Below, piece by piece: positions 29,920 to 59,902 of a stretch of DNA of 64,000 bases. The notes beneath the pieces were generated by a model. It saw nothing but the letters and a program-made list of their open reading frames with translations. It was not told the DNA's origin and made no database searches. Position 1 is the stretch's first letter, and every line of letters starts with the position of its first letter. Both the position numbers and the translations under genes were made by a program. Where the stretch lies: positions 32,001 through 96,000 of IMG/VR virus record IMGVR_UViG_3300035659_000003. One strand, written 5' to 3'. This stretch comes from a virus.

Positions 29920-32900
29920 TTATTCTGGGGATTTTTTAGGGTTCTTCCGACGAACAGGCCGGAATGTGGGCCGTGCCTTCCGATAGATCAGGAAGCAGCG
30001 GCAGTTAGACCGGCAGATCGTGCTGCCGTCTCGGGGTAGGCGGGGCATCCGGTTGGCGGGCCAGGGGCTCTGCGTGGCCATCTCCAGGCACGTAGCACAG
30101 TGCTCAGCGCCAAGGGTCAGCTTCCAGTGGGCCTTCATCTGCGGCAGGTTCTCCGAGACGGTCTGATGATACAGTCCGGCGGAGCCGTCCGCGTAGAGCT
30201 TGGCGCGCCAGATGGCCTGCTTCTCGGTCTTGACCTTGCCCGCCGCCAGATCGTCGCGGAAGCCGTCGAGGTAGTGGTGCTGATGTCTCAACTCGGCCAT
30301 GAGATTATCCCGTGCCCGCTGCCGTGCGTCCGGCGTTTCCTTGAGCCGCAGCGTCGAGGCGTAGGCCGACTTGCCATAGAGGTCATCAACCGCCGCGCGC
30401 ATCTGTGCGTGCCAGGTATCCACGTCGCCTTCGCCGCGCCACAGGGCACACGTTGCGGTCTCCATTGCCTTCTTCGTGCGCCCGATCTCCATGTTGACGC
30501 GCTCAAGCGGGGAGGGCCACCGGCGCTTGCCTCGCTTGTCCAGCTTAAAGTACACGCGGGAGGGCAGATCGGAGTCCACGGCGGTGCGGGCCTTGTTGAT
30601 GCCCATCGCTGCTAGGCGCATCAGCATCTCTGCATGCGCGATTTCCGCCAGGGTAATAGGCGCATTCCGGCTGTCCTGCACGTCCTGAGAACCAGCAACA
30701 CCCTGGTTCGTGGTGACGATCCCCGTCGTGACTTCCGGTGCGTTGCCGGTGTGGGCACGAGAATCCATCGGCTCGGTTGGCGCGCCCTTCTCAACCTCCC
30801 CACCTACGAATATCTGGATGTGCCGCCCGTCCGAGGTGGTCACGAACTTGCGGGGGGCGATCCCCAGCTCCTCACCGAAGTCCTTGTTCAGGGTATCCGC
30901 CTCGTCCTCGACGGGGTTCCACTCAAGCAGCTCCGCGATAGCGTCGTAAAGCCCCGAGAAGCGCCGCTTAAACTTAGTAGGGCTTATCGTCATGTATGCC
31001 ACGCACTCGGCGAACATCTCCGCCGAACTGTCGCGCCCGTAGTGACTCGGGAGACCGCGTGCCGTCTCCTGCGCCGCGTGGAAGGCATCGAGCCAGGTGT
31101 CAGAATTAGAGAAGCGACGCTCCGTGCCATCGTCCATGACATGAGCATACTCGTGGGCGATCACCGCCCGCATGGTGTCATAGGGGCCAGAGGGAAGCTC
31201 TCCCCCCATCGCGCTCCCCCACGACTGGGCGTCGAGGGTCAGGACACTGACCTCCGCCTCATCATATCCGACGTAGGTCATGCCCGCCGCCTTGCCCACG
31301 TCGTCTGGAGACAGCTCGCCCGCTTCTGCCAGATCTTCCATAGCACGTCTCATATCGTCGCGGGAGTAGGTGTGCCAGACCGCATTAGGTACGCCGTGCG
31401 GTGCGGGCATCAGCACCAGCACCTCAGCGACGATGGGCTGATCCTGAACGTAGACATCAGCGAAGTCATGCTGCTCGGCGATCTTGAGCGCGGTGAATAG
31501 CTCGTGGATTTTCTTCGGTATTGCCTCCCCGCCATGCCGGTTGATGTCGCGGATATGGCGAATCAGGGCGCTCCGTCGGACGTGGGCACCTCCGTGCTTG
31601 CCATGCTTCTTCTGATCATGCTTGCCTGGAAGGTGCTTCTCGACCCCACTCGCAGGCTGCAACGCGAACACATCATGCGTCTGCTTTGTCCAGTCGGCAT
31701 TATGCATGTCCTCGTCCAGCCACACGGCCTCTTGTGCGGCGAGTTCGATATTGTGATGCCGCATATCCTGCTCGAAGCGCTCCTCCCACGCCGGTAGTTC
31801 CTGCCCTCCAGCACGCCGAGCAACGACATCAATTTCCCCGCCGATGACTAGCATCTCATACTCTTCGGCGCAGCCAGGCCCTGTGCGGAACGTCGAAAAG
31901 ATCTTATCACGAGGCACGCGGGCGGCAACCAGCATCTGCTCTTCCTCATGGTGTATAGCAAAGCGCGTTGCAACCGAGTACTCGCTGGCGAAGGACGACA
32001 GGGGGTTGAGCTTAGCACGGGTGCGCGTCGGCTCATCCGCTGGTAGTGCAGATACCCAGTCCGGAATTTTCGCTGCCTCGTCCCATCCCATACCCCGCAC
32101 CAGCACGACCTCATCCATCTCCAGCTCTTTGAGAAGGGCCTGCGTGTCCTCATATACAGAGTCCACCCATGCCCGCAGAACCGGCCCGTGCTTGGAGACG
32201 ATACGGTCAATCTCGTCGGAACCATGTTCGACGTAGGCGACCGTAGTGTCCTCCACGCCGAACGCCTCTGATGCAACCCGCTGCAGTGCAACGCTCGGTG
32301 CCCGATGATCAGAACTAGATATGGCCCACGTCTTGGTCAAGTAGTAAGCGACCTTTTCCGACGAGGACAGCTCTACCCCCTTCGCCGGATCGTAGACATC
32401 GCGAAAGTGAGGAGCGAGAGTTCGTGCCGCTGCCCAGAAGGGAGCAGCCTTAGCCATCTTGTCTTCGGCGTCTGCCCACCCTTCGGCGAGAGCCATCGTC
32501 AATGTCTGCCGAACACCCGTCAGCTCATCCCGATTGCCTCCCCGAAACCGATAGTTATCCCCTTCCCGAGAAATCCTTACAGGCGAGCCGACTTTCTCAT
32601 AGTAGTCATTCAAGAAGCGAGCCGCTTCATAGGAGAGCTTGTCAAGATTCTCCGACTCCTGCTCAGGCGTTACGCCGAGCTTCCGCTCCATCCCCTTCGC
32701 CGTCCGCTCCATGATTTCCTGCTTCAGATCAGCGCGGGCGTCATCGTCCCTAACATCGATGCTATTGCCCGCCGTCAGGATACCTACCTGCTCTTCCAGC
32801 TTCGCACTGAAGCTCCTATCCTTTGCCCGCTGGCTGAGCACGCCGTCCACCGAGAATAATGCGTCCCTGATACGCACAGCAGCATTGAAGTTCTCGTAGC

Positions 32901-34884
32901 CACCCTCCTTCTTCGCCCTGCGTATCATCGCTGCAAGCGCCGTGTGAAGGCGATCACGAATGGTCTCGAGCAAGCCGTCGCCGAGGTTGGAAAATTCTGG
33001 AATGTCGCCACGAGTGACTCTCTCCAGAATCTCCCGATAAAGGTCACGTGCTTCCGAGGGGTCGAGCCAGTCCACCGCCCCCACGCGCCCCGCTGCTGCG
33101 TGGCCACGCGCACGCCCGTGCTTCTTCTGATCATGCTTGCCTGGAAGGTGCTTCTCGATCTTCTTGCTCTCCGGAATGGAGCCGGAGCCAGTCGCGCGCC
33201 CAACGTGCGGGGTCTCCGCGCCGCCCTCGGAACCCTCGTAGCCAGTCTCCTGCCCTTCTTCGGAGGTGCCCTCTTCCGGCGTGATAGGCTTGATTGCCTC
33301 GCTAGGGGTTACGTCCCCCTCAGCCAGCCGAATAACGTCCCCGCCACGGCTCATCACAACGACCTCGTGCTGGCCCATGCCCTCCAACTCAGGCAGGGCA
33401 TCCGAGAGCAGGAACACCTGATCGACGGGCAGCTTCCTGGAGACGACCGATCCGTCGCCGTATCCCTCCGCTCCTGCCCAGTCCTCGGCCACCTTCATAC
33501 TCAGCGTCCACGATTCCAGCGGACGAGGGCGATACTCCTTGCCCGCCACCAAGTCCTCGTGCATCTTCCCCGAAACACCCCTGTGCAGCTTCACTGACTT
33601 CAGCCCTGTCTGTTGCAGTGCCTTCGAGGAGGCAAGGCGTAGAGCCTTCAACACCACGGGGTTCAGTGCATGGTCGACCTTGGGGTTCGCGCCCGCGATG
33701 CCGTCGATGTAGCTATCGGCGTCGTCCGACGGAGCGTCAGGCTTTCGGGATGCCAGGTGCTCCTTGGCGGCCCTGCGCCCCAGCAAGCGGTCAACCAGGA
33801 GCGTCCCGCCATCCTTGTCCCATTCCCAGAACCACACGAGGGCAGCAGCCTCGGCCTGCTCCTGTGAGACGCCCCAGTCCTTCAGAACACGATTGAACGT
33901 CCCTCGGATGCCGTGCACCCCCCAGTCTTTCTCCCGCCCTGCTTCAGGGTCGGCCTCATAGTAATGCCCGCCACGTGGCCCCTCTTCGACGTGCTCTCCG
34001 CCTGGCGGCTCCTCGCCCTCGCCAATGTAGATGCGCCCTTTCCTGGCTTGCGCCACGTAAGAAGGGATGCCTACGCGTACGCCGACGTTCTTGGGGTGGA
34101 TGTCCTGATCCAGATCGTCTAGCTCACTCCACTCCTCGCCGTGCGCTTTCTGAATCGGCCCTTCGCTGGTCTCAACGGCCTCAATCGCCAGGATCGCGTC
34201 AGTATTGTAAACGTAATAACTGCCGAGGCTCGCCCCGTCAAATCCAGCAGCGACAGTATTGCGCGTATAGGACTGTGCATCCCGCACTCCCGCCAAATCA
34301 AAGGCACTATCATACTGAGTCAGGAATCGCCCTCTGACCTTGGCCTGCAAGATCACCATGTCTGGCCGCATCTTCCCCGTCATGGGTGCGGTGAACCACA
34401 TGCGAGCCTTTCTCGCTGACGGCGCGAACGAGATGGCGTAGTCGTTCCGGTACCGAGGGCGGATATGCTGCAGGTGGAACCCCTCCCTCAATATCGCTTC
34501 GGCGCTCGCCCGCGTCGTCCCGTGATAGAGCGTCTTCGTCTCTAGTGGCACGGGCGCGCCCCGTCGTTCAGGCACGGGCCGCTTTGGGCTAGGCTTGTCA
34601 GGCCGTGTCCACTTGCGCGCTAGGCCTTCAGACGCCGATTCTGTGGCCCTGTGGGGCGAATCCTGGCCAGTCTGTGGCGAAGGGCGACCCTTCCCGCCTA
34701 CGTCGTAATAGCGCCCGCCACGAGGCCCCTCCTCGATATTGACGCCCTTCGGGGGTTGCTCGCCAGGCTGCAGGTAAACGCGACCCTTCGCTACCTCGCG
34801 AATGACCTCCAGATTGGGATCGGGAGCGACTACGAAATCTGTGTTCCCCTGTCGGATTCTTACTCCTTCGCGCCGTCTAGCCAT
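29920..34884 (-). CDS. MuF (head morphogenesis) domain polyprotein with three ADP-ribosyltransferase-like domains and a zincin metallopeptidase
   Basis: C-terminal WKLTLGAEHCATC...LPRDGSTICRSNCRC (MuF); TLYHGT (ART, His-type); LHRG..ESWT..QHEVVV and LVRG..LSSFA..EYEMLV (ART, R-S-E type); AHEYAH..SHYG..EMFAE (zincin). Confidence 0.8.
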   Translation of the reverse strand: MARRREGVRIRQGNTDFVVAPDPNLEVIREVAKGRVYLQPGEQPPKGVNIEEGPRGGRYYDVGGKGRPSPQTGQDSPHRATESASEGLARKWTRPDKPSPKRPVPERRGAPVPLETKTLYHGTTRASAEAILREGFHLQHIRPRYRNDYAISFAPSARKARMWFTAPMTGKMRPDMVILQAKVRGRFLTQYDSAFDLAGVRDAQSYTRNTVAAGFDGASLGSYYVYNTDAILAIEAVETSEGPIQKAHGEEWSELDDLDQDIHPKNVGVRVGIPSYVAQARKGRIYIGEGEEPPGGEHVEEGPRGGHYYEADPEAGREKDWGVHGIRGTFNRVLKDWGVSQEQAEAAALVWFWEWDKDGGTLLVDRLLGRRAAKEHLASRKPDAPSDDADSYIDGIAGANPKVDHALNPVVLKALRLASSKALQQTGLKSVKLHRGVSGKMHEDLVAGKEYRPRPLESWTLSMKVAEDWAGAEGYGDGSVVSRKLPVDQVFLLSDALPELEGMGQHEVVVMSRGGDVIRLAEGDVTPSEAIKPITPEEGTSEEGQETGYEGSEGGAETPHVGRATGSGSIPESKKIEKHLPGKHDQKKHGRARGHAAAGRVGAVDWLDPSEARDLYREILERVTRGDIPEFSNLGDGLLETIRDRLHTALAAMIRRAKKEGGYENFNAAVRIRDALFSVDGVLSQRAKDRSFSAKLEEQVGILTAGNSIDVRDDDARADLKQEIMERTAKGMERKLGVTPEQESENLDKLSYEAARFLNDYYEKVGSPVRISREGDNYRFRGGNRDELTGVRQTLTMALAEGWADAEDKMAKAAPFWAAARTLAPHFRDVYDPAKGVELSSSEKVAYYLTKTWAISSSDHRAPSVALQRVASEAFGVEDTTVAYVEHGSDEIDRIVSKHGPVLRAWVDSVYEDTQALLKELEMDEVVLVRGMGWDEAAKIPDWVSALPADEPTRTRAKLNPLSSFASEYSVATRFAIHHEEEQMLVAARVPRDKIFSTFRTGPGCAEEYEMLVIGGEIDVVARRAGGQELPAWEERFEQDMRHHNIELAAQEAVWLDEDMHNADWTKQTHDVFALQPASGVEKHLPGKHDQKKHGKHGGAHVRRSALIRHIRDINRHGGEAIPKKIHELFTALKIAEQHDFADVYVQDQPIVAEVLVLMPAPHGVPNAVWHTYSRDDMRRAMEDLAEAGELSPDDVGKAAGMTYVGYDEAEVSVLTLDAQSWGSAMGGELPSGPYDTMRAVIAHEYAHVMDDGTERRFSNSDTWLDAFHAAQETARGLPSHYGRDSSAEMFAECVAYMTISPTKFKRRFSGLYDAIAELLEWNPVEDEADTLNKDFGEELGIAPRKFVTTSDGRHIQIFVGGEVEKGAPTEPMDSRAHTGNAPEVTTGIVTTNQGVAGSQDVQDSRNAPITLAEIAHAEMLMRLAAMGINKARTAVDSDLPSRVYFKLDKRGKRRWPSPLERVNMEIGRTKKAMETATCALWRGEGDVDTWHAQMRAAVDDLYGKSAYASTLRLKETPDARQRARDNLMAELRHQHHYLDGFRDDLAAGKVKTEKQAIWRAKLYADGSAGLYHQTVSENLPQMKAHWKLTLGAEHCATCLEMATQSPWPANRMPRLPRDGSTICRSNCRCFLIYRKARPTFRPVRRKNPKKSPE
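31604..33158. repeat. identical 40-bp direct repeat (31604-31643 and 33119-33158) encoding EKHLPGKHDQKKH
   Basis: tgcttcttctgatcatgcttgcctggaaggtgcttctcga present twice, 1515 bp (505 codons) apart. Confidence 0.9.
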
Positions 34885-37800
34885 TAGTTGCGCTTCCTGG
34901 CGCGTCCCCTGCCAGTCGAGTCTCGAATCGTGAATATCCGATCAGCCCGCGCCGCCGCAGTAGACCTAGTAGCTGTTGATCTAGGCAGTTGCTCCAACCG
35001 CTGATCCTTCAGGAAGAACAAGGCACCGGCTGAAATCCTGGCCTGCCCCGCATCGTCTAGCTTCTGCCATTTCCTGGTAACTGCGCCCACCTTCCCAGGT
35101 GAGTCCGCTGCGCTGTAGTCGCGCCATACGGCAGGCATGTCGGGGTTGCGGTCTACTGTGAAGCGGTCATGCGCCGGAACGTCCCCGCCGCCCCGCGTCG
35201 GGTCGTGAGAGTGCGCGGGATTCTCTTCGGTGTCGTGCTTGGCCAGCAACCTGACCTCGCCGCGTGGGGCCTCTTCGAGTCTGCTCTTGTAGTCTGACAA
35301 TGCCTCTAGCCACGCATCCAGCAAGGATTCTGCCGTCCAGTGGGGATCGGGAACCCTCTCGCCCTGCTCCTCCCCCGCGATGCGCAGGCGCACCTGGGGA
35401 ATGGGTAGACCGGACTGATGAAGCGCCACCAGGAACAGCCCGAACTCCTTGGCGCTGGTGCCGAACCAGCTAGGCGCGTCCTCTAGCATCTTGTCGTACG
35501 CCTCGTTCGGCTGGGCTCCGCGCTTGACGTAGCGCTCGTAGATGGCAACCTGCTGCTGCACCTCATCCGTCTCCCACGGCGCGGTCTTGTCAGTGGCCTT
35601 TTTCAGCCCGAATCGCCATACCTTATTCACTTCTGCCAGATACTCCATGACAGCGTATGCCACCCGCATCGCGGGATCATGATCGTCATATATCCCGAAC
35701 ATGATGGGAAGGAACATCTCGGCCTGGTGACCAAACGATATCATCGTATCGATAGCGATTGCCTGCGAGCGGCGATCCGCGTAGCGATATCGCCTCAAGT
35801 CCTGGCGCACAATCTCGTCGAACTCTTCGGCCCAAAAATCGGCCTTGCTTTCGGCGGCAGGGTCGTCTGTCCCCACCGCCCATTCTCGCAAGCGGCGAGG
35901 AGCAGCTTCGGCAACGCGCTCTGCGACGCCGAACAACCGATCAACATCGACGTCGCTCGCCTGTCCTCTAGCCAAACGAGCATATTGCTCCAGAAAATCG
36001 GACATCGCTTCGAGTTGCTTGGGGTATTTCGTATTCCTGACCGCGTCCGCCAACTCTGGCACAGCGTCCACTAGCCTGTGCTGCGTCGGATCGTGCGAGT
36101 GCCCTGGGTTCTCCTCAGTCTCGTGCTTGCTGACCTTGCCGCCCTTGACGGGGTGCACCCAGATGATGTCGTCCTTGTTGTCCTTCTCCCACTTCGTGAA
36201 GCAAGCGTCACAGAACCACGCGATAGCCATGCCCTCGGCCCACTTCACTTCCTTCGTCGGCGGCTTATCGCAGTCCATGCACTTATCGCGCCTGGGGCGC
36301 GCCTTACTGGTCACGCCGATATCCTGCGTAACGGCACCGGACGTAGGCGTCGAATCTCCGATCCCGCCCGCCTTAACCTGCAGCGAGTCGGCCTGTTGAA
36401 CGTCCTCCAGCATCTGGATGGCCTGCTCCTCGCCAATGGCCTCCGCCACAGCCTCTACCTTTTCCTTAAGCTCCTCGGCGGAATCCGTGTCCCCGTCCGG
36501 CAGGGTCGGCCAGCGGTCATCCGCCAGCAGGCGCAGGTCTGCGTCTCCGAGTTCTCCTAGCCCCTCCATAATACGCGCGACCAGCTTGACCCGCTCCGGC
36601 ACCTCGCCCTTGGCCAGCAGCGCCGCGTCGTCCGCCGGAACCTTACGGGTTGCCAGGCCCAGGGACTCGACCTTCTTGCGGAAGGCGTCTAGCGCGTCGG
36701 TGATGGCGTCCGAGAGGTCAATCCGCTCCTTGCGCGTTAGGTGCCCCAGCGCCCGCAGGCGATCCATTGCGTCCGTGTAGGACTGATGTATCTTGCTCTC
36801 CGCGATGTCAATCAGCGTCGTCTCGGCCTTGTCGACCTTCCCGCCACAGGTTAGGCAAGACGTCCGGCGGGCGTCGGCGGACTTGGAGAGCACCACCAGT
36901 TTCGCATCTTGGTTTACGCCCAATTCGCAAATGGTTATTTCGTAAAATACTATGCGTGAGATCAGCCAGAAGCACTTCCCGTCCTGGCACGTGTAGTGAC
37001 GGCTCTCCAGCGGGGCATCGCCGGAGATGGAGAACGAGGCCAGCTTGCCATCCTCGATGTCCTTGATTACCTGGTCGACGATCGGCGGGCGGTTCGGGTC
37101 GGTGCGTATCTTGATCACGCAGAACAGCCCGATGTCGTCCACCGTGGTCTTGAAGACCTGCCCAGTCTTGGGGTGCGTCCACTGTGGCAGCACCTCGCCC
37201 ACCTGGACGTTGCTGTGGAGCAGCATCGCGTTCCGGTATTTCGGCTCGGCCAGGAAGCGCACCAGGTCTTCCCGCATCGCCTCCTTGGTGATCAGGTGGT
37301 GCTCCTTGTCGATCACCTGTGGCGAAGCGTACCCGCCGACGACGTACTCCTTCTCCTCGTCGTCCTCGGCCTTGTAGAGCGTGTGCACCGCGCCATAGGC
37401 CATCCGCGTGCCCTGTGGGACGGCCTTGGTCAGCACCTCGGGGGTGTAAGGTTCACCGTCCGGCGAAAGGGCCGCTTGTAGTGAACACGTGCCGCCCTTG
37501 CAGGCCGCGTTGTATTCCTGGTACTCCGTCCCCTCGCCCGTCTCCGGTGCTACGATTGAGGTGTCCTGCGCCGATGCGGAGTGAGTGTCACCCTGCTTAG
37601 CGGTATAATCTGTGTGCAGTTTGTCGCCGCTGTGTGGACTTTCTGCACGCGTAATGTACCGCGCAGCCTCGAAGCCCTTCTGAAACGCCTCGCCGTGCCA
37701 TCTCTGCTCGTGCTTCTCGATCTTGTCGGACGGGTCGGTGATTAGGACGCCGATTACCTTCACGACATGCCCGTAGGCACGCATGTGGGCGGGCGCGGTG

Positions 37801-40687
37801 GAGCCAGGGCGCGTCCTTGCGAACTTCTCCACCTTGAATCCGGCGGGCTCGAGGGCGGCCTTGACCTTATCAGCCCGTCCAGTCTCCAACTCAAACCCCT
37901 GCGCATGAGCTACCAGGCGACCGCCAACCTTGGCGGATCGGAGCAGGTTCTCTATCTCGCTCTTACGCGTCCAGACGTTCAGGTAGGCGGGCTTACCGCC
38001 GCCCTCCTGCGTCGGGTCGTGAGAGTGCTCTGGGTTCTCCTCGGTGTCGTGCTTCTCAACCTTCCGGCGGCACCGCGCGCAACCAGGAGCGATCGGCCCT
38101 ACATCCGCGCCAGTCATAGCGTCGGCAGGTGGGCCAGCGAAGTCCTTTCTCAAGCCCTCCGCGTGCTGCACTTCCCGCCTGAGAATCTCAAGGAATGCAG
38201 CCGCCCCGTCGCCTCCATAGACGGTCTCACTGATCCGCCGCCCCTTGTGGTCGGAGATGAACCAGGACAGCCCGCGTGCCGTCTTGCGCGCCAGCAGCGG
38301 ATAGGCTGTGCCGTTGATGGTCACCACTTCTTGAACGTGCGGAAGGATACGACGCAGTTGAGCCATATCTTCAGGAGACCAGTCCGACATCCCGAGACCC
38401 TTCTTGTTGCGGATCGCCCATGCCCAGCCCTCTGGCCGCTTGGCAACGTGAACCTCCTCCCGCCCCTCCTCTTTCAGGCGCTCCCGCCAGCGCTTGACGC
38501 GGTCGCGGGCCGCCTGCTTGCGTGCCTCCCGCCCCTTTGGGGTGGGCTCCGTCTTATCCACATCCAGCAAGCCCTTATGCTGCAGTTGACGCTGCGCCAT
38601 AGTCAGAGCATCAGCGAGCAGGTTATGCCGCGCCTTGTGCTTTTCAGTCGTGGAGCTGGCCTGCCACATATCGCTCCAGTTAATGAACGCCTGATTGGTA
38701 TGAGCCACCTCTTCGATTAGATCGTCTGGGATATCGGGGAAGGCTTGGCGGAGATATGCCGCGATGACCTCGACCCTGATGGCCCCATCGCGCTGATCAG
38801 GATTGAGAGTCTCTTTCCACTCCTTGATCTTCGCGTGAAGGGTATCTCGAGTATGCATCCCCCCCACAACGGTAAGTGCGGCCCATTCGATGTTTTCCAC
38901 CTCGTCGAAGTATGTCCCGACGACAGCCCGCGCCTTCGCGTCCAATGCGCTCCACCCAAACACATCCGTGAAGAGGCGCTCCGCCAGATCGGGCTGCAGC
39001 CATTCGGTGAGTGCTTCCTCGATCAGGGCGTTCGTGCCCCCGTATCCCCACCGGCCAATCGGGTTGACCGCATGACAAGTCTCATGTGCAATGGCCGGAA
39101 CCACGAACGTAGCACTCCAGTCTGTCGCGCCGCCCAGCACCGCCTCTAGGTGCCTGACTGCGCTGGGGCCGAGGATGAGCTTCCCGCTGTCATAGGCCGC
39201 ATAGGGGAGCGCTGTCGTAATCAGCTTGCCGCCGACCTTCGTACCTTCTACGCCCCACAGAACGGCCCAGCGACCCTCGTCGTACCCCTCCACGCTGTGA
39301 ACGTTGCAGCTCCAGCCGATGGCCTTAGCAGTCCTCAAGCACGACTTAACAGCTTCCGTTGCCTTCTCGCTGAGGTTCTCGACGTGGACGAGGTCTCCGC
39401 GTGCTTCAGCACGACGATGCTCCTCGCCACGTTCTCGCCAGACACGGTCGAGGTCTTCGGTTAGATAGTAACGCCCCCCGCGAGGGCCATCCTTGACATC
39501 AATGCCCTCTGGAGGCTCCTCGCCAGGCTTGAGGTAGACACGAGCTTTCTCGATCTTCTCGTCCGTCGCGCGCGCCTTGTGCCCAAGCATCTTGATATAG
39601 GCACGGGCCTCTTGCAGCGCGATCTCGCTCTTGATATAGGCGGCGAGTTTCAGAGCCTTAGTGAAGAGCTTCTTGGCGTCCGCTGCGCTGGCCAGCACCG
39701 CCACCTCGCGGATTCGCTCGACGATCAGCGCATCACGCAACAGGGAATCTGCCTTCTGGACGCGCGCCGTCCCCGCCTTGCCGCGCCCCTCGATCACAGG
39801 CAGCGCCTCCTCGTGGCTGAACCAGGATTCAGGTAGATCGGCTTCGCGCTCGGAAGGCTTACTGAAGCGGGGCTTAGGTAGCTCCGCGCCTGGAGCAATA
39901 ACGTTTGAGCGGTCGTGCTGCTTCTCCAATGGGGCTCCGAGGAACAGCTCCACCTCGTTGTGGTAGTCCTCTATATAGCGGTCGAGCCGCTCCTTGAACT
40001 CCTGCAGAACTCTGTGCGGTATGTGCATTAGAAGCTCACCGTTCCTACATATGAGTGCTGGGCCAGTTCGCTCTTCCACCCAACACGCTCGTGAAAACCG
40101 TCGATCACGTAAACGTCGGCCTGACGCGTGTCCGTGTTCAATATAATCCCGTAGGTTTTAGCCTTCAAGCGGATACCACGTTCTCGGCCTATTGCCATGA
40201 GCACCTGTTGCTTGCGCTCAATCGTGGCCTTCCCCTTCACACGGTTCCAGGCCGCCTTCTCCTCCGGTGCTGCGGCCTTCAACCACGCAGCCTCTGTAGG
40301 GCCTGGCTGCCCAATCGTCGCGCGCCAGTGCTGCGCCGATTCGCCGTTGGATACCAGCCCCGCCTTTACCTCCACAACGTGATGATCTGCCATAACGTCT
40401 ACGGGGAAGTTCTGTGCTTCCTCTACGCTCAAGCGCCGTGCGTCGCCAAAGCCCTGATCGAGCAAAAGCTGAAGTGCGATCTTCTCGCCAATCTCGCCGG
40501 TCTCAAGCTTGCTGGGCTTATGTGCCAGTGCGACGGGCTTGCCGCCGAAGACTCGCTCCTGTGGTTCTGGTTCGCCCGCGCTCGGGTCATGTACGCTCTC
40601 GTAGTAAAGTCCGCCGCGCGGCCCCTCTTGAACGTGAACACCCTGTGGCGGCTTCTCGCCTGGTTTGAGGTAAACCTTGAATTGCTT
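33958..40687 (-). repeat. dispersed coding repeat [VI]Y[LI]xxGExPPxGxxxx[ED]GPRGGxYY (4 copies in 3 genes)
   Basis: Copies near 33958-34041, 34705-34788, 39465-39548 and 40601-40687. Confidence 0.9.
34884..40028 (-). CDS. polyprotein with an internal HK97-type prohead protease and a zincin domain
   Basis: VVGGYASPQVIDKE..LLHSN..VGEV..LASFSISG..YEITIC..GVN (protease, about 36880-37370); AHETCH..IEEALTE (zincin); likely start at 40028 by TAATG coupling. Confidence 0.82.
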   Translation of the reverse strand: MHIPHRVLQEFKERLDRYIEDYHNEVELFLGAPLEKQHDRSNVIAPGAELPKPRFSKPSEREADLPESWFSHEEALPVIEGRGKAGTARVQKADSLLRDALIVERIREVAVLASAADAKKLFTKALKLAAYIKSEIALQEARAYIKMLGHKARATDEKIEKARVYLKPGEEPPEGIDVKDGPRGGRYYLTEDLDRVWRERGEEHRRAEARGDLVHVENLSEKATEAVKSCLRTAKAIGWSCNVHSVEGYDEGRWAVLWGVEGTKVGGKLITTALPYAAYDSGKLILGPSAVRHLEAVLGGATDWSATFVVPAIAHETCHAVNPIGRWGYGGTNALIEEALTEWLQPDLAERLFTDVFGWSALDAKARAVVGTYFDEVENIEWAALTVVGGMHTRDTLHAKIKEWKETLNPDQRDGAIRVEVIAAYLRQAFPDIPDDLIEEVAHTNQAFINWSDMWQASSTTEKHKARHNLLADALTMAQRQLQHKGLLDVDKTEPTPKGREARKQAARDRVKRWRERLKEEGREEVHVAKRPEGWAWAIRNKKGLGMSDWSPEDMAQLRRILPHVQEVVTINGTAYPLLARKTARGLSWFISDHKGRRISETVYGGDGAAAFLEILRREVQHAEGLRKDFAGPPADAMTGADVGPIAPGCARCRRKVEKHDTEENPEHSHDPTQEGGGKPAYLNVWTRKSEIENLLRSAKVGGRLVAHAQGFELETGRADKVKAALEPAGFKVEKFARTRPGSTAPAHMRAYGHVVKVIGVLITDPSDKIEKHEQRWHGEAFQKGFEAARYITRAESPHSGDKLHTDYTAKQGDTHSASAQDTSIVAPETGEGTEYQEYNAACKGGTCSLQAALSPDGEPYTPEVLTKAVPQGTRMAYGAVHTLYKAEDDEEKEYVVGGYASPQVIDKEHHLITKEAMREDLVRFLAEPKYRNAMLLHSNVQVGEVLPQWTHPKTGQVFKTTVDDIGLFCVIKIRTDPNRPPIVDQVIKDIEDGKLASFSISGDAPLESRHYTCQDGKCFWLISRIVFYEITICELGVNQDAKLVVLSKSADARRTSCLTCGGKVDKAETTLIDIAESKIHQSYTDAMDRLRALGHLTRKERIDLSDAITDALDAFRKKVESLGLATRKVPADDAALLAKGEVPERVKLVARIMEGLGELGDADLRLLADDRWPTLPDGDTDSAEELKEKVEAVAEAIGEEQAIQMLEDVQQADSLQVKAGGIGDSTPTSGAVTQDIGVTSKARPRRDKCMDCDKPPTKEVKWAEGMAIAWFCDACFTKWEKDNKDDIIWVHPVKGGKVSKHETEENPGHSHDPTQHRLVDAVPELADAVRNTKYPKQLEAMSDFLEQYARLARGQASDVDVDRLFGVAERVAEAAPRRLREWAVGTDDPAAESKADFWAEEFDEIVRQDLRRYRYADRRSQAIAIDTMISFGHQAEMFLPIMFGIYDDHDPAMRVAYAVMEYLAEVNKVWRFGLKKATDKTAPWETDEVQQQVAIYERYVKRGAQPNEAYDKMLEDAPSWFGTSAKEFGLFLVALHQSGLPIPQVRLRIAGEEQGERVPDPHWTAESLLDAWLEALSDYKSRLEEAPRGEVRLLAKHDTEENPAHSHDPTRGGGDVPAHDRFTVDRNPDMPAVWRDYSAADSPGKVGAVTRKWQKLDDAGQARISAGALFFLKDQRLEQLPRSTATRSTAAARADRIFTIRDSTGRGRARKRN

Positions 40688-41209
40688 GGCTACCGTTCCG
40701 CTGCCCCGTCGAACAATGATGCCCCATCGCGCGTCCTCCGTAACGTTGAAGCCCGCATCACGCAGGGCCTGCGTTGCCCGCGACAAAAGCCGCGCGTAGC
40801 GCTCGCCGTCGTAAACGGTCTGATGGAGCTGAAGCTTGTATTCGCCCTCCGCCCACTTCGTTACATACAGACCATCGCGCCGAGTTGCCTTACCAGGTTT
40901 CTGCCTAACTCGATACTTCTCCTGTGGATCGCGCTCGTATTTTGTTGACACAGGCAGCCCTGCCGCCTCCAACGCACTGTGCAGATTTCCACCTGTAGGC
41001 TTCGGCGCGGCCCTAGTGGGGTGGGGGGCCTGCGTCGGGTCGTGGGAGTGTTCGGGGTTCTCCTCGGTGTCGTGCTTCTTGACGCGACGCTTCCCCAAAG
41101 GACGATCTACGCCGCGCAGGGCGTAGGTGCTGCGGTCGGAATCTGTGCCGTAGTGCGCGAGCTTCTCCGCGCGCTTGGCAATCTCGCTTAGCGACAGTCG
41201 GCGGGCCAT
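40028..41209 (-). CDS. two-module protein with a C-terminal PD-(D/E)xK nuclease-like domain
   Basis: TGEIGEKIA...FPVDVM...VVEVKAG restriction-endonuclease-fold motif behind a GPRGG tag; first module behind a KHDTEENP tag. Confidence 0.7.
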   Translation of the reverse strand: MARRLSLSEIAKRAEKLAHYGTDSDRSTYALRGVDRPLGKRRVKKHDTEENPEHSHDPTQAPHPTRAAPKPTGGNLHSALEAAGLPVSTKYERDPQEKYRVRQKPGKATRRDGLYVTKWAEGEYKLQLHQTVYDGERYARLLSRATQALRDAGFNVTEDARWGIIVRRGSGTVAKQFKVYLKPGEKPPQGVHVQEGPRGGLYYESVHDPSAGEPEPQERVFGGKPVALAHKPSKLETGEIGEKIALQLLLDQGFGDARRLSVEEAQNFPVDVMADHHVVEVKAGLVSNGESAQHWRATIGQPGPTEAAWLKAAAPEEKAAWNRVKGKATIERKQQVLMAIGRERGIRLKAKTYGIILNTDTRQADVYVIDGFHERVGWKSELAQHSYVGTVSF

Positions 41210-41220
41210 GAGTCGGCCCC

Positions 41221-41919
41221 CTAGCAGCAGTGCTTACGTTCGAGACGCTTCTCGATGTGCTCTAGGTCTACGATGACGCCGCGCTTAAGTTGCTTCTCTA
41301 GTTTCTGAGCCACAGCGCGCAACCTTGTGCCGACCTCGTTAATGACGATCCGCTTTTCCTCGTAGGCCACAACGGGCTCCGCGTCGGGCCGTGCCGCTGC
41401 CTTCCGGATCGGGGCGAGGTCGATATCCTCACTCCCGCATCCAGGACAGGAACGTCGGCCTGCCGGAATCTTGCGCCCGCACTCCTGGCACCAGAACTGC
41501 TTGTCGATCTTTGCTTTGTCCATCTTGTTCTCCCGTGCGAGATGATTGTGGGCCGCCCGCAACCAGTCCAGCCCGCCTCGCCTGTCTTCCCTCATAAAGT
41601 TCGTCGCCGCTGCGTGCAGAAGTTGGCGGACTTCCTCCGACACCTTGCCACGCAAGTCATCCCGCCGCTGCAGAATCACGCCTGCCATTCGCTTCGGGCC
41701 TATAAGAGCCATGTGATCTTCTATCTCAGGCAGGGACAGCCCCTTCATGGGGTTCCGCGCCGCACGCGGCTTCGAGAAGGACTCAGAGGGTGACCGCAGC
41801 CCGTGCACGGCCTCGCCCGCGTGGGTGTGGTGCTTCCGCGCCTCCTCGTGGCAGTAGTCGTGACCGCCGTGACGGTGGTGACCAGGGGGACAAGGCTTAT
41901 CGACGAGGCGATCAGGCAT
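41221..41919 (-). CDS. modular head-cluster protein with His/Cys tag and zinc ribbon
   Basis: CPPGHHRHGGHDYCH; CQECG..CPGCG; RBS GGAG before MPDRLVDK. Confidence 0.65.
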   Translation of the reverse strand: MPDRLVDKPCPPGHHRHGGHDYCHEEARKHHTHAGEAVHGLRSPSESFSKPRAARNPMKGLSLPEIEDHMALIGPKRMAGVILQRRDDLRGKVSEEVRQLLHAAATNFMREDRRGGLDWLRAAHNHLARENKMDKAKIDKQFWCQECGRKIPAGRRSCPGCGSEDIDLAPIRKAAARPDAEPVVAYEEKRIVINEVGTRLRAVAQKLEKQLKRGVIVDLEHIEKRLERKHCC

Positions 41920-44653
41920 TCGCTCTCCCGCCACCTGGACGGTTCTGCCGCTCAGTACCCATTCCAGGTGTGCGCCACGCACGCTGTGCCTGTGCCCTGC
42001 GCCCAAGCTCGGCGTTGACAGCCTTCAGACGATCGATATACTCCTGATGTACGTCGGGGGCCAGTTGCCTGGCCCGATCGCCCTTCAGGTAGTTGACCAG
42101 CGCGTCGTAGTGACGCGAGAGCTTCTTATCGTCCATGCGCTGCACGTCTGCGTGGGCCTGATCGCCCGCCTCGGGCTTCGGCTTCACCTTGCTTGCCGCA
42201 CGCCGCAGGATGTCGACGACCACCTTGGTCTGCATTCTCTCCTGCGGAGAGTCATCCTTGCCCGCCATGATACGATCCTTGGCGTGCTGCTCTATCCGAG
42301 CGGCTGCTCCGGCAAGGCGCTTGTAGGCGTCCGCCGGATCGCGGGTATCCTTGAGCCCCTCCTTGAAGTGGGCCAGAACCCGCTCCAACCCGCCAACGCC
42401 CAGAGCGCGGGCCTGCACAACAGCCTCGTCTAGAACGCCGTGGGCGTCCTCCAAGGCACCGGCAGGCTTCATCATTGTCTCCCCTCGGTGCGCGCGCTTC
42501 ATGGGGTGGCAGTAGTCATAGGGCTCGTGCTTGTGCCATCCGGCGGGGCAACCGCCGACGGCCTTCTTGATCTCATCAATCGCCTTGTGCGCCTGCTGAT
42601 AGGTTTCGTGAGCGCGCGTCCCGTAGGGAGGAACCTCATGGGTGCGGCTGACTGCAGGAGGCACGTCGGGCCTCGGCTTACCTACGTGACGGTGACTCGC
42701 AGACGGGGGTTTTGGCTTCAGTGGCTCTAGGGACAGGCGCTTATCGATCTTCTCAACCTCTTCCGCGATCTTCTGGTAGAGGTGCTTCGGCCCCCACTCC
42801 TGGGGATACTCGTCAGGGTGCTGCTTATCCAAGTGCCGCCGCCTCTTCTCGCGCGCGTCGCGCCGCCGCTCAATGTCGCCGTGAATCTTGTCACGCTGGC
42901 TCTGCAGCCGCTGTGCCGTCCGCGCGCGATCGTGCGTCTCTGCCCTGCGTGCTGCGTAAGACTGTGCGCTGCCATACGGGGAATGAGAATGCTCTGGGTT
43001 CAAGTCACTCACATGCTTTTCCACACGGCTCAGGATTGTCTCGCAGTCGTCGTGAAGTGCGCCAGTCTCGTGCTTTTTCAAGGGATATGACGACCTCGGC
43101 CCAGACACAGACTGAGGGCCTGGCCCCAATATCGGGCGCTTCACGCCTTCCGCCTTCTCCTCGTGACTGTGGACGAACGTTCCGCCCTTGTGGTCATGTG
43201 CTACTCCGTGGTGGCGGTGCTCGCGGGCTGTCCGACCGAACTTGGTGATGGGCTCGTACTCGGCCCGCCCGCCGCGCTCAGGCTTCGGATCGAAGATGGC
43301 CGTGTGGAGCCTGCGATTGGCTTCTGCCTCCGACTCGGATTTGCGCGGGTCGTGAGAGTGACTAGGATTCTCCTCGGTCTCGTGCTTTGCCAGCCGCTGC
43401 CCGTGCGCCGTCCCGCGCTGCTGTCGTGGCTTGGTCTGGCCGTGGGGCTTGCGCGAAGGCTTGACGCCCTTGATCTTCGTGCTCCGCCGCGACTTCTTCT
43501 TATCCAAGTCGTGGTGCTCCTGTGCGTGCTCGGAGAGAATCTCCGCAACGGACTGAAGCGTCCTACCGATCATAGTAACGTCCGCGAGTTCGGGGGTAGC
43601 CTCATCTGTGCCGCCACCGTTCTTTTTCACCCGCTTCGGCACGAACTTAGCAGGGCCGACATCGGGGGAGTCAGGAGCAACTGTTCTCCCGAACGCCCTA
43701 TCCTTGCGCCGCGTCTCCCTGGCTGCGTCCGCTGGTGTCCAAGGATGTGATCTAATATTGGCGGCTCGCCAGGCCCCAGGGTCTGGGTGCGTCGGTCTAG
43801 CCTTCTTAACGGGCTGCGGCTTGGCCTGCGGCCCACGAGGGTGCCAGCCCCAGGCAGGCGCATCAGGGCCTAGCTCGTGCTTCTCGAGTGCCCTCAGCGT
43901 CCTTGTATCGTGCCACTCTGCCACACGCGCGACATAAGGACGGTTCTTCTTGTAGTAATCGAGAATCTGCTTCCGCGCGTCCTTCTCGTTCTTGGCCTTC
44001 ACATTCTTAGTCGACGTCTGCTGCTCTGGCCCCTTGACGGTATACTCCACGTAGCCAAAGTGCACGCGGTAGGTTTTGAGGTCGTCCTTCTTCTTCCCCT
44101 CCGCGCCGCCGCCCTCCTTTGTCGGGTCGTGAGAGTGCTCGGGATTCTCTTCAGTCTCGTGCTTCTTCATCGGCTTGTTACGCGGATTGAACCGTGAACC
44201 TGCCCACCCGCTCGGAGGCTTGCTCGTGTCACCAGGAGCCCTCCCTGCGTAGCGCTCTTCTGCAGAGGGCTTCTTAGGCAGCTCCCCACGCTTAGGATCA
44301 GCAGGGCTCGGAACAAAATGCTGCTTACCGACCCGCCCAGGCCCCCTAGCGAGCCCTGGGTGTGGCGCGGCCAACTGACGACGCGGTTGCGCGGGGGCAA
44401 CACCAGAAAAACCCTTGCCTTGATAGACCTTGGCCGGAATACCCTGCGGCTGTGGGTTCTGCACCGGCCCCTTCGGGACGGTCGGCTTCTTACCGAAGAG
44501 CTTGTTGATTTCAGTTATCCCCGCCCGAACCGCATCCAGAGCCTTATCCTCCACTTTATGTTTGATCGAGCCACAGTAGGCATCGGGATCGTCCTTGTCG
44601 CGGTTGCGCGATACGCAGTCATCGAAGTTGGTGTAACCGGCAAACGGCATCAC
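41912..44653 (-). CDS. basic, His/Pro-rich modular polyprotein
   Basis: 913 aa; N-terminal PFAGYTNFDDCV..DKDDPDAYC module; about 20 x-x-K|H/A/Q boundaries; three His tags. Confidence 0.7.
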   Translation of the reverse strand: MMPFAGYTNFDDCVSRNRDKDDPDAYCGSIKHKVEDKALDAVRAGITEINKLFGKKPTVPKGPVQNPQPQGIPAKVYQGKGFSGVAPAQPRRQLAAPHPGLARGPGRVGKQHFVPSPADPKRGELPKKPSAEERYAGRAPGDTSKPPSGWAGSRFNPRNKPMKKHETEENPEHSHDPTKEGGGAEGKKKDDLKTYRVHFGYVEYTVKGPEQQTSTKNVKAKNEKDARKQILDYYKKNRPYVARVAEWHDTRTLRALEKHELGPDAPAWGWHPRGPQAKPQPVKKARPTHPDPGAWRAANIRSHPWTPADAARETRRKDRAFGRTVAPDSPDVGPAKFVPKRVKKNGGGTDEATPELADVTMIGRTLQSVAEILSEHAQEHHDLDKKKSRRSTKIKGVKPSRKPHGQTKPRQQRGTAHGQRLAKHETEENPSHSHDPRKSESEAEANRRLHTAIFDPKPERGGRAEYEPITKFGRTAREHRHHGVAHDHKGGTFVHSHEEKAEGVKRPILGPGPQSVSGPRSSYPLKKHETGALHDDCETILSRVEKHVSDLNPEHSHSPYGSAQSYAARRAETHDRARTAQRLQSQRDKIHGDIERRRDAREKRRRHLDKQHPDEYPQEWGPKHLYQKIAEEVEKIDKRLSLEPLKPKPPSASHRHVGKPRPDVPPAVSRTHEVPPYGTRAHETYQQAHKAIDEIKKAVGGCPAGWHKHEPYDYCHPMKRAHRGETMMKPAGALEDAHGVLDEAVVQARALGVGGLERVLAHFKEGLKDTRDPADAYKRLAGAAARIEQHAKDRIMAGKDDSPQERMQTKVVVDILRRAASKVKPKPEAGDQAHADVQRMDDKKLSRHYDALVNYLKGDRARQLAPDVHQEYIDRLKAVNAELGRRAQAQRAWRTPGMGTERQNRPGGGRANA

Positions 44654-44659
44654 TAGCTC

Positions 44660-47200
44660 CTACGGCAGGGCGTGAATCCGTGATGCCCCGCGCCGCCTAC
44701 CCTCAGCCATTGCCTGCCGCTTGGCGTCGGCGTACGAGCCGTGGATGAAGTGAGGCTTAGGGTCGTCGTCATACTGGAATGCCCATCCGCCCGTGCCTCT
44801 CGGCTTCTTCCCGTGGCTCCACTCAAAGCGCTCGGTTGCGACGTGCCTCGGCCCAGCCCCCTTGCCTGCGCGCGGGTCGTGCTCGCTGTGCGGGCTGTTC
44901 GGCGTGTCGTGCTTCTTTACTGGTGCGGTGGGGTCTGTCGGCACGCGCCGAGTCGGGGTGACGCCCCAGTCGCTACCAGATGTCCATACCTTACCGGATG
45001 GGCTCGACGCAGGGGCGGCCCCTGGCTTACGCTTCTCCAGCGCATCTGTTGCCGCGCGTAGCTCAGCCTGAGCCTTAGCGACTTCAGAATTCATCTTTTC
45101 GGCTTTTCTCTCCACGGGCACCTCTCGCGGGTATCCCGCTGCAGGCCGCTTGCCCGTCCACGCCGGACTAGAAGAGGTGTGCTCAATCTGCCCCATACTT
45201 CCCATTTGCGGGTGATAGGCACGAGCATGACTGTGCGTGTCGCCTGTCTCTTGATGCGTGTGCTCGCGTCCCTGGACGCCGTGCGGGTCAGCCAGCGGAG
45301 TCTTGCGAGCCTTGGAGAACGCGGGGCTCATCTGATCGCGCTTATGCATTGACCCACCAGGAAGCGTGTCCTGGGGCGGGGGCTTTGTAACCCCTGCCTT
45401 GGGGTCTCTGAAGTGCCGCTGCAGATCACGCTGTGCGGACGACATCCCACCCACCAGCTTCTTCGGCTTAGGCGCAGGGCCATAAGGTGCCCCGCCGTGC
45501 GGGTGAGGGCCATGCTCCTGTGGAGCGTCGTGCTTGTCTACCTCGGCCTTCTTCGCATTAGCCATTCCACCACGAGCGTGACTGGCCGAGTGGCCGAACT
45601 TGCGCTCGTGCTCACTGTATCCAGAACCATAAGGCCCAGGCGTCCGGCTTTCCGGCGCGCGGGGCTGCGGCGGAGAAATCTTCACCTTCCCGTGCGCGCC
45701 GTAATCGTGCTCGTGGGTCTCCCCACCAGGCCCCATGTGACCGTGCAACCTTCCCTGTCCGCCGCGAGGCCCTCCGTGGGGGGTCTCCTTCTCCAGCGCG
45801 GACGTTGCCGCACGCAGGGTTGCCTGTGCCTTGGCAAACGTAGGGCTCATCTTCGTGACTAGTGGCTGGACTTCGGTATGTGGCGTAAACTTCCGAGATG
45901 CGGGATGCTTTTGCGTCACAGGGTGACCCTCGGACGCCCCCTCGTGGCGATGCTGCCCAGGAGGACTGCCGTGCGTTGTGCGAAGCTTGCTGGGATCATA
46001 GGTGTCCTTCTGCACCTTCGCCTTCTTCGTCGGCGTAGCGGATGGGCGGGTTATTTTATAAGGATGATAATCCGGAGCCGGTACTTCGCTAGTGCCGCGC
46101 TGCCTGCGAAACGGGCTGCGCGTCGAAGGGGCGTACCCGCCCTGGTGCCTCACCGACATCGTTCCCTGCTCACCTTGGGCCTTCATCGCTGGTTCCGATC
46201 GCGTGGGTGTCGGGGATGGATGGCTCCCAGGGCGCGGCCCAGGGACAGGAGCGACTGTAGACTGGGGCTGTGGAGTTGCGGGCTCGGCCTTCTTCGCAGG
46301 AGAGAAGCGTCCAGGGTAGTCCTGGGGATTCTTCTTGGGGCGAGGCGGGTCTGGCTTGGCACGCGGCCCCGCGCGATTACCGCCACCGCGTCCCGTCAGC
46401 CATCGCAAACGCTCTGGGGACGAGCGAGGTGCGGGAGCATCCTCGGCCTTGTCCATAAGGTAGCTTGAGGTGCTCTTCTGCCCCGTGCTGGTGGGCTTAC
46501 GCGGACGGCCAACCGGCTTGAAGCCGGAGGTCAGCGGCTGCGGATGTGTGTGGCGCTCGCCCTCGGGTGCTCGACTTCTCGATCCGAAGTGCGGGTGCGT
46601 CTGTGGACGCGAGTAGCGCTTCTTGTCCCCATAATGCTTCTCAAGCTCCTCGTCCTCGGCCTTGTTCATGCCCCCTCGGATCGAATGTGGGGCTCTCGTC
46701 GCGTAAGAGTCAGCACTAGTTCCCTTCTTCGACTTAGGCGGCCAGTGCGGAATACCAACTTCCTTGTCCTGGGCCTTCCACATGGCCTCGCGCCGTTTCG
46801 GTTCGCGCCGGACGGTCTTGCCCTTATCCAGGTCGCCTACGGCCCGAACGGACTTCCGCAGCGCAGATAGCGCCTTAGCCAACTCCACCGTATCCGGCAG
46901 CTCCTCACCGTCCTCGGCCTTGCCCACAACTTCCTTCAGGAACAGCTCCAGGGCCTGGTTGAGCTTCGCACCCTTGGCGAGCCCAGGCATCTGAAAGATA
47001 CCAGCACCCGTCACGGCGTAGTAGGAACCGCCCTCGCGCCCCCACAACTCGGCATAGTTCGCCCCGTTGTCGGCGGACACGTAATGAACAATTCCGCCCT
47101 CGGCACCCTTGGACAGGTTCGGCCAGCGCGATGCGGTGCTGAGTGTGATGCCCATAGGCTGCACAGCCTTCGCGAGCCGACTCAAAAATGTCTGGATCAT
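44660..47200 (-). CDS. basic, low-complexity modular polyprotein
   Basis: 846 aa; more than 20 hydrophobic-x-K motifs spaced about 20-50 aa apart; P/G/R/H-rich. Confidence 0.7.
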   Translation of the reverse strand: MIQTFLSRLAKAVQPMGITLSTASRWPNLSKGAEGGIVHYVSADNGANYAELWGREGGSYYAVTGAGIFQMPGLAKGAKLNQALELFLKEVVGKAEDGEELPDTVELAKALSALRKSVRAVGDLDKGKTVRREPKRREAMWKAQDKEVGIPHWPPKSKKGTSADSYATRAPHSIRGGMNKAEDEELEKHYGDKKRYSRPQTHPHFGSRSRAPEGERHTHPQPLTSGFKPVGRPRKPTSTGQKSTSSYLMDKAEDAPAPRSSPERLRWLTGRGGGNRAGPRAKPDPPRPKKNPQDYPGRFSPAKKAEPATPQPQSTVAPVPGPRPGSHPSPTPTRSEPAMKAQGEQGTMSVRHQGGYAPSTRSPFRRQRGTSEVPAPDYHPYKITRPSATPTKKAKVQKDTYDPSKLRTTHGSPPGQHRHEGASEGHPVTQKHPASRKFTPHTEVQPLVTKMSPTFAKAQATLRAATSALEKETPHGGPRGGQGRLHGHMGPGGETHEHDYGAHGKVKISPPQPRAPESRTPGPYGSGYSEHERKFGHSASHARGGMANAKKAEVDKHDAPQEHGPHPHGGAPYGPAPKPKKLVGGMSSAQRDLQRHFRDPKAGVTKPPPQDTLPGGSMHKRDQMSPAFSKARKTPLADPHGVQGREHTHQETGDTHSHARAYHPQMGSMGQIEHTSSSPAWTGKRPAAGYPREVPVERKAEKMNSEVAKAQAELRAATDALEKRKPGAAPASSPSGKVWTSGSDWGVTPTRRVPTDPTAPVKKHDTPNSPHSEHDPRAGKGAGPRHVATERFEWSHGKKPRGTGGWAFQYDDDPKPHFIHGSYADAKRQAMAEGRRRGASRIHALP

Positions 47201-58382: not shown

Positions 58383-58385
58383 ATA

Positions 58386-58461: not shown

Positions 58462-58464
58462 AAA

Positions 58465-58538: not shown

Positions 58539-58539
58539 A

Positions 58540-58617: not shown

Positions 58618-58629
58618 ACAAACACAACT

Positions 58630-59896: not shown

Positions 59897-59902
59897 AGGT
59901 CA

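Follow-up and report, generated by a model that had tools for sequence, protein, structure and literature searches.

The 64,000-nucleotide stretch of viral DNA analysed here (the window) corresponds to bases 32001-96000 of the 109,910-bp IMG/VR virus record IMGVR_UViG_3300035659_000003, which bears direct terminal repeats. Between positions 35197 and 44914, the range for which the original prediction had described a reused tag, four genes of the head-assembly block share a short His-rich peptide, referred to here as the TEENP tag. A six-frame search of the window with a regular expression recovered eight copies, all on the minus strand, six of them exact matches to the pattern KH[DE]TEENPxHSHDP and two degenerate, and no further copies were found elsewhere in the whole 109,910-bp genome. 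All the features of the window that are given below with coordinates lie on this same minus strand, and an arrow within a motif marks a presumed cut or junction.

Tag copies and the genes that carry them

The largest of the four genes encodes a polyprotein of 1731 amino acids (34884..40079), which contains three exact tags, a zincin-like HETCH motif, and an embedded head protease. The first of these tags, KHDTEENPEHSHDP (38013..38054), heads a 113-residue alpha/beta module upstream of the protease, the second, KHETEENPGHSHDP (36087..36128), lies within a 236-residue cassette that is specific to the window, and the third, KHDTEENPAHSHDP (35199..35240), heads the last module of the protein, of 117 residues. 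The 393-residue protein (40028..41209) is formed by a leader, a tag, a small module, a hairpin with the motif GPRGG, and a PD-(D/E)xK-like nuclease (residues ~217-393), and its exact tag, again KHDTEENPEHSHDP (41036..41077), comes after the 45-residue N-terminal leader. The 913-residue protein (41912..44653) is basic and His-rich, and carries two exact copies, KHETEENPEHSHDP (44123..44164) and KHETEENPSHSHDP (43346..43387), together with the degenerate copy KHVSDLNPEHSHSP (42977..43018), which is kept in the relatives as KHQTEVNPAHSHGP or KHVSDLNPEHSHSP, and with additional hydrophobic-x-K↓H sites. The 846-residue protein (44660..47200), rich in Pro, His, and Lys, has several hydrophobic-x-K↓AE sites and a single degenerate tag of type B, KHDTPNSPHSEHDP (44873..44914), which heads a C-terminal module of 83 residues, the smallest tag-downstream module in the window.

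The six exact copies share 12 invariant residues of the 14. Their DNA varies synonymously at codons 4, 5, 7, 8, 11, and 13, with amino acid replacements limited to positions 3 (D/E) and 9 (x). Because the codons vary synonymously while the residues stay fixed, the comparison of the copies indicates that the peptide itself is under purifying selection. The original prediction had reached the same view from nucleotide differences that it described as mostly synonymous, and while the selection on the peptide stands, the majority is only modest, with pairwise sums over the exact copies of 52 synonymous versus 32 non-synonymous differences. In the 19 distinct copies found in the window and in seven related contigs, K1, H2, P8, H12, and P14 are invariant, and the position two before the Lys is always occupied by V, L, M, I, or F. 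The prediction was also correct in its count of six near-identical and two degenerate copies over four genes, in the Lys that precedes every copy, to which the hydrophobic residue can now be added, and in the different module that follows each of them, given that the segments downstream of the tags were alike only in the tag itself when compared all-against-all by BLASTP.

The motif that spans the start of the tag is concentrated in this part of the genome. In the five large head-block genes, hydrophobic-x-K-H has a density of 2.89 per 1000 residues, versus 0.25 per 1000 in the remaining proteome, an enrichment of approximately 12 times, of which amino acid composition accounts for only ~3.7-fold, and a chance origin is thus excluded.

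Two possible roles of the tag in translation were considered and rejected. The 2A ribosome-skipping peptide has the form D-x-E-x-N-P-G-P, with an invariant NPG-P; the tag reads NP[EAGS]H and contains no G-P, and the likeness of DxEENP to this peptide is judged to be a coincidence. An internal ribosome-binding site (GAGGAG) in the tag DNA was discarded because no start codon comes after it, and two of the copies read GAAGAG.

The tag genes belong to a block in which the portal, the protease domain, a MuF-like protein, and the major head protein are all encoded on one strand. In the order of transcription, the block begins with the portal (54992-56782) and continues with genes for a collagen-like tail fibre, an exonuclease, and a neck or minor head protein, and then with the four tag genes, in the order of 846, 913, 393, and 1731 residues, with a gene for a 261-residue zinc-ribbon protein located between the 913- and 393-residue genes. 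Downstream of the tag genes are a 1654-residue protein, a lysin, and a ClpP-like protease, with the major head protein (8086-9507) much further downstream. An acidic, scaffold-like protein is encoded at 9526-10287. The 1654-residue protein (29920..34884) is a MuF-like multi-domain protein with a DRAT/ADP-ribosyltransferase (ART)-like domain, a HEYAH motif, and a C-terminal domain that matches phrog_24776, and it contains two copies of a second kind of peptide, the type A header KHLPGKHDQKKHG (33115..33153 and 31600..31638). Beside the virion genes, then, unrelated domains are joined in giant proteins, including DRAT/ART-like, protease, and PD-(D/E)xK-like nuclease domains, as well as HExxH motifs.

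A number of other features were recorded in these genes and around them. The 846-residue protein (44660-47200) is also Gly-rich, has little predicted fold, and resembles a string of small basic peptides. The N-terminus of the 913-residue protein (~44550-44653) opens with a peptide of the form FAGYxNFDDCVxxNxDKDDPDAYC, which may resemble a terminal motif of head protease or scaffold proteins from other phages. A Cys/His motif, CPxGxHxHxxxDYCH, which may represent a small metal-binding knuckle, is present in both the zinc-ribbon protein (41221-42006) and the 913-residue protein (41912-44653). The peptide YLxPGExPPxGxxVxxGPRGGxYY, modelled as a beta-hairpin by AlphaFold, occurs in four copies in three of the giant proteins (34705-34776, 33958-34029, 39465-39536, and 40601-40672), and recurs in the relatives G002 and G003, and at the end of gene 116 of the haloarchaeal virus HVTV-1. 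Seven tRNA genes (Pro, Ala, Lys, Thr, Gln, Tyr, and Met) are located at 10727-10875 and 58306-60878.

Rarity of the tag and exchange of modules at its junctions

A metagenome scan for K-H-[DE]-T-E-E-N-P-x-H returned eight contigs, seven of them being close relatives, though mosaic ones, that come from a single sample series, and a word-indexed search of 5.8 billion proteins retrieved 17 proteins with the tag. The exhaustive search with a profile of the tag gave 13 matches among 1.84 billion protein representatives, and the exact tag is therefore very rare. Two of these 13 matches lie outside the word-indexed set, one of them (P0022) bearing KHVTQNNPGHSHDP and KHDTTNNPDHSHNP and the other (P0021) being discussed below. 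Judging from these database searches, only one small clade has the TEENP form. The scan of IMG/VR with the C-terminal half of the tag recovered five chance matches only, in unrelated short open reading frames (ORFs), and the tag profile had no match among the sequences of the PDB.

The nucleotide search of the 12-kb region against named phages gave no match, and the nearest named relatives of the portal are haloarchaeal tailed viruses, with an identity of ~26%; in the haloarchaeal virus HVTV-1, the GPxGG motif is present and His tags are absent. A match in Nitrospirae (L035) was rejected as a chance match in a membrane protein. The contig L034 (CAZVFG010000006.1, 35.9 kb), which carries three TEENP tags, was binned in a Methanoregula metagenome-assembled genome. 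An archaeal host, to which this bin and the haloarchaeal relatives of the portal would point, is disfavoured, however, by the bacterial-type RecA, DnaB, PolA-UDG, M23 peptidase, and amidase-like lysin that the virus encodes, so that a bacterial host is more likely on the strength of its gene content, and the binning of L034 is judged to be unreliable.

The close relatives reveal how the tag behaves over short evolutionary distances. The identity profile of the tag region against these relatives is mosaic, and the indels that separate them start and end at hydrophobic-x-K junctions. The window-specific cassette of the 1731-residue protein (35598..36305; residues 1259-1494), for example, which is formed by two modules and has the edges TSK↓A and LKK↓A, is missing from the orthologues in L014, L015, and L016. 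Conversely, a 94-residue module in L014 and L016, with no counterpart in the window, spans exactly from tag to tag, and the DNA of the window tag at 35199..35240 is a hybrid, with its first half as in the upstream tag of L014 and its second half as in the downstream one. The idea in the original prediction that the repeat may seed recombination thus has one clear case, in this hybrid tag and the two L014 tags that flank the 94-residue module.

The other tag genes present similar patterns. Among the orthologues of the 846-residue protein, one relative has a full tag and another a half tag where the window protein has none, and the C-terminal module of this protein has HDTPNSPHSEHDP as its header in the window, but H[QE]TEENPxHSHNP in L016, L017, L019, and L034, with types B and C alternating ahead of the same module. 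The orthologues of the 393-residue protein keep the 45-residue leader and differ in what follows, which may be a TEENP tag with an extra module, the peptide HDTPRSPHC[EK]HDP right before the nuclease, or no tag at all. Given that the type of tag and the following module change together in these orthologues, the tag appears to travel with the module downstream of it. Altogether, the sequence comparisons provide indirect support for the Lys-His bond as a module junction.

These events may be taken to mean that the tag is mainly a recombination joint, kept for the exchange of modules and with no peptide function, for which the tag-to-tag indel with its hybrid DNA, the presence or absence of the tag between relatives, including one half tag, and the mosaic identity profile would all speak. 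This reading is nevertheless highly improbable, given that selection acts on the amino acids, that synonymous variation limits the longest identical run of DNA between any two copies to 25 bases, and that other indels are bounded by junctions with no tag.

A family of three-histidine headers

The type A peptide of the 1654-residue protein follows the pattern KHLPGxHDQxxHG, for which a scan of IMG/VR found 64 stretches in about 55 contigs, with 82 distinct copies. The proteins that carry it include MuF, portal-MuF, ADP-ribosyltransferase, and ddrB-ParB fusions, and in the MuF fusion proteins the tags are located between the MuF and ART domains. Among 77 type A copies, 24 are found no more than 50 residues from the first possible start codon, whereas, of 65 copies, none comes within 50 residues of the stop codon, the nearest being 87 residues away. 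This asymmetry makes the tag a header rather than a tail.

The TEENP tag and the type A tag are alike in the basic residue, His2, a middle His, His12, and the G or D-P that follows, and often also in a Gly run, which is usually found after the type A tag, and in their header orientation. They differ in the middle, which reads DTEENPxHS in the former and LPGxHDQ in the latter. The common frame is formed by K1-H2, a third His at position 7, 9, or 10, and H12, then G or D-P, with the type A His residues at H2, H7, and H12. The two types co-occur in the genome of the window, and type A co-occurs with type B in P0021, a protein of 2458 residues with three copies of KHLPGEHDQxxHG and three of KHDTP[AR]SPHxEH[DG]P. 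A relative with a portal ~61% identical to that of the window has KHLPGxHDQxxHG, KHPGHDDQSVHDP, and KHNTPRSPHRLHDP in its large head-block proteins. The original prediction had treated the tag as a stand-alone invention, which is not upheld, as the TEENP tag is a rare variant, limited to one clade, of a three-His header that is itself widespread. A short tblastn search with the type A tag against named phages gave no match, and no published description of the tag motifs was found in the literature, including the papers on MuF toxins (PMC5576092) and polyvalent proteins (PMC5512222).

Structure models were obtained for two copies of the TEENP tag. The AlphaFold model of the 393-residue protein, built on an alignment of 19 sequences, has a mean predicted local distance difference test score (pLDDT) of 72, with a leader helix at residues 7-22 and a segment of pLDDT <50 at residues 20-73, which includes the tag. 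Beyond this segment come a small module, the GPRGG motif modelled as a beta-hairpin, and a confident C-terminal domain. This domain has weak matches to PD-(D/E)xK nucleases, and D271, E280, and K282 are invariant in it. In the model of residues 650-1100 of the polyprotein, the pLDDT averages 49 overall and is 65-85 in the protease, and the tag at 38013..38054 is located in a linker of pLDDT <50 ahead of a folded module of 80 residues. The models suggest that the tags probably lie in disordered linkers directly before folded modules. The nuclease-like module (40031-40561) also recurs in other phages, in the C-terminal position of portal (PF06074), MuF (PF04233), and DUF2213 fusions, where it is preceded by different short junction peptides, such as KFNPxHDxxGRF...GGGG or HPRGGKG.

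Peptides that contain Asn-Pro or Asp-Pro may break without a protease, as in the NPTH loop of FlhB/EscU and in reovirus mu1, in the case of Asn-Pro, or in the FrpC self-processing module and the mucin GDPH, in that of Asp-Pro. Both NPxH and D-P are present in the six exact copies of the tag, which could, in principle, self-cleave at one of these bonds. This is very unlikely, since the type B tags that relatives carry at this junction lack the Asn, the invariant set comprises only K, H, P, H, and P, the predicted disorder of the tag provides no strained turn, and the type A tags have neither N-P nor D-P. Autocleavage of the FlhB/EscU type (N↓PTH), in particular, was rejected because the Asn is variable and the tag is modelled at low confidence, and is probably disordered.

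Head protease, proposed junction cleavage and putative capsid cargo

The protease embedded in the 1731-residue polyprotein is a predicted head-maturation serine protease domain (36861..37379; residues 901-1073), recognized by its match to phrog_23555 (E 1e-10). The best structural match of its model is T4 gp21 (5jbl_A, Z 9.7, 139 residues aligned, root-mean-square deviation 3.4), and herpesvirus proteases are found further down the list. The domain is flanked by the sites LYK↓AEDD and LSK↓SADA, which map to its two edges in the AlphaFold model, and LYK↓ and LSK↓ are kept in viruses with a 62% identical protease, which is located there at the N-terminus of its polyprotein. This protease was not found beside the type A tags in other contigs, which indicates that the tags are not bound to its lineage. 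In L014, L012, and L016, the head protease contains a 284-residue intein with an HNH endonuclease (PF14890 on P0001 and P0011), inserted directly after the predicted catalytic His (LLH↓C...HN↓SNVQ; L014:6900-7773, and at the same site in L012 and L016); the protease of the window (equivalent position ~37213) and that of L015 have no intein.

The residue that precedes the type A tag offers a second line of evidence. When the Lys was left out of the search pattern, this residue, among the matches listed (at least 80 stretches), was K in 60 cases, R in 14, A in six, F and E in three each, and N and Y in one each. It is uniform within a contig, as in those with LVA↓H twice, R three times, or LLE↓H twice. 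The Pfam family Peptidase_S78 was found in six of eight contigs with K or R before the tag versus none of six with E, A, or F, three of the latter being at least 92% complete (a one-sided exact probability of ~0.009, calculated by hand and with kinship ignored). The preceding residue thus appears, in part, to track the type of head protease, a suggestive pattern that supports a cut just before the His. In L126 and L112, the type A tags come after L-L-E or I-L-E, which is the cleavage motif of T4 gp21, and no Peptidase_S77 was detected there.

The agent of cleavage may instead be sought in the giant proteins themselves, with the tag as the recognition site of zincin-like metallopeptidase domains that would cut the polyproteins after injection, the catalytic zinc being engaged by the three His residues. 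The HETCH motif of the 1731-residue protein and the HEYAH motif of the 1654-residue protein fit this scheme, and Iyer et al. (PMC5512222) predict autoprocessing by such domains, with no defined sites. It is, however, an improbable reading, as any HExxH is present in just 14 of 68 ORFs with type A tags, the preceding residue tracks the family of the head serine protease, and Pfam recognizes no metallopeptidase domain in the giant proteins of the window, in which only the two motifs were seen.

A different possibility is that no cut takes place at the tag, and that it acts as an uncleaved docking peptide, similar to the cargo-loading peptides of encapsulins or to a retained capsid-targeting sequence (CTS), which would attach to the inner surface of the capsid, to the scaffold, or to the portal, with hydrophobic-x-K-H forming part of the binding epitope rather than a cut site. 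In this case, the conservation of 13 residues, which exceeds the needs of a protease site, would find an explanation, the predicted disorder would be typical of short linear motifs, and the type A tags, often at the very N-terminus, would leave little to be removed by cutting. Several tags in one polypeptide would be redundant for loading, however, and hydrophobic-x-K junctions with no tag are present beside the protease. The preceding residue also varies between phages with the tag unchanged, a better fit to a protease-specific site than to a single epitope, and docking without cleavage is therefore considered rather unlikely.

The interpretation that we favour, with a confidence slightly above even, combines a processing junction at Lys↓His, cut by the embedded head protease, with an N-terminal His header that is retained and has a second role. 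The polyproteins would enter the procapsid, where, probably, the serine protease, with its predicted gp21/herpesvirus fold, would cut after hydrophobic-x-Lys, freeing modules with an N-terminal His, when tagged, or Ala or Ser, when untagged. The 13 residues of H-[DE]-T-E-E-N-P-x-H-S-H-D-P would then stay as the new N-terminus of the freed module; written for synthesis, the header peptide is HDTEENPEHSHDP. The conserved residues all lie after the invariant Lys, and there is no conserved site past the tag, so that a cut between K and H would keep the tag on the cargo, unlike the CTS of phage T4. A second job for the header, which would be common to all the modules, is probable because the conservation after the cut far exceeds what a protease needs. 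The best guess for this role is the chelation of a divalent metal or the binding of a common partner inside the head, and metal binding is suggested by the three His residues, at a fixed spacing and flanked by acidic residues.

Several observations weigh against this interpretation. The link between the preceding residue and the protease, which is suggestive, is drawn from 14 contigs, some of them incomplete and phylogenetically non-independent, and the searches for Peptidase_S77, ClpP, S49, DUF2213, and phrog_23555 in the contigs with E, A, or F gave no matches. Pfam S78 does not match the protease of the window itself, and K-H is absent from the major head protein. The same polyproteins also contain modules that start with A or S instead of His, so that the header is not required for a junction, and the invariant Lys, together with the hydrophobic residue, could be part of a binding motif instead. 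The host and the virion are uncultured.

The closest characterized analogue, by comparison of the peptides and their setting, is the CTS of T4, which is found on the internal proteins IPI-III and Alt, and is processed by the prohead protease gp21 at L/I-x-E (PMC9026906). In both cases, a short conserved peptide lies N-terminal to unrelated proteins, which are head-internal in T4 and putative cargo here, a three-residue motif has a hydrophobic residue two before the cut (L/I-x-E in T4, and hydrophobic-x-K at the putative cut in the window), and the proteases have the same fold, according to the model. The cargo proteins of T4 also differ between related phages (PMC9026906). The T4 CTS precedes the cut and is removed, whereas the 13 residues of the window follow the presumed cut and would stay on the cargo, and the window tags are internal, His-rich, and repeated in polyproteins of up to 1731 residues, with no sequence similarity to the CTS.

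Other systems share parts of this arrangement. Like the giant proteins of the window, the phage-type polyvalent proteins (Iyer, Burroughs, Anand, de Souza, Aravind 2017, PMC5512222) combine unrelated enzymatic domains (ART-like, zincin motif, nuclease, and MuF) and have their genes next to those of the virion; packaging, injection, and processing into units are predicted for them. Autoprocessing by a metallopeptidase is proposed in that paper, with no junction peptide or site named, whereas the window has a head serine protease embedded in the polyprotein, and junctions with a defined motif. In the Dar system of phage P1, DarA is cleaved by the head protease Pro, and DarB and others are packaged (PMC12810830), so that large anti-host proteins are loaded in the head and a cargo-organizing protein is N-terminally processed by the head protease, as may be the case here; no repeated tag or polyprotein architecture is described for this system, in which loading depends on DarA and Hdf at the capsid interior. 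In the MuF polymorphic toxins of temperate phages (Jamet et al. 2017, PMC5576092), a MuF head domain is followed in the same protein by toxin modules that vary, and it is in proteins of this type that type A tags are placed between MuF and ART, although the paper makes no mention of a linker motif, cleavage, or a junction.

Taken across these phages, the three-His header is probably a "cut here" label with which many of them mark proteins that are probable capsid cargo. A bolder extension, which is possible but doubtful, holds that the headers form a portable "address and cut" code for capsid cargo, of which TEENP would be one dialect, with the preceding residue matched to the head protease, and with the retained N-terminal His triad acting as a metal-dependent latch that keeps the freed modules in the head, attached to the capsid, the DNA, or one another, until it is released on ejection. 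If this is true, approximately 16 added residues would suffice to load any protein into such capsids. The TEENP form is further evidence that the K-H...H frame persists where the middle of the header varies, and it thereby narrows the set of residues that matter.

The choice, loading, and release of cargo by phages are understood in detail for only a few models, such as the T4 CTS and P1 Dar. A header or junction defined by its sequence would allow cargo to be recognized straight from the genomes of uncultured phages, and would mark the points at which the giant polyvalent proteins are cut into working units, while also giving a small handle for the loading of foreign proteins into capsids.

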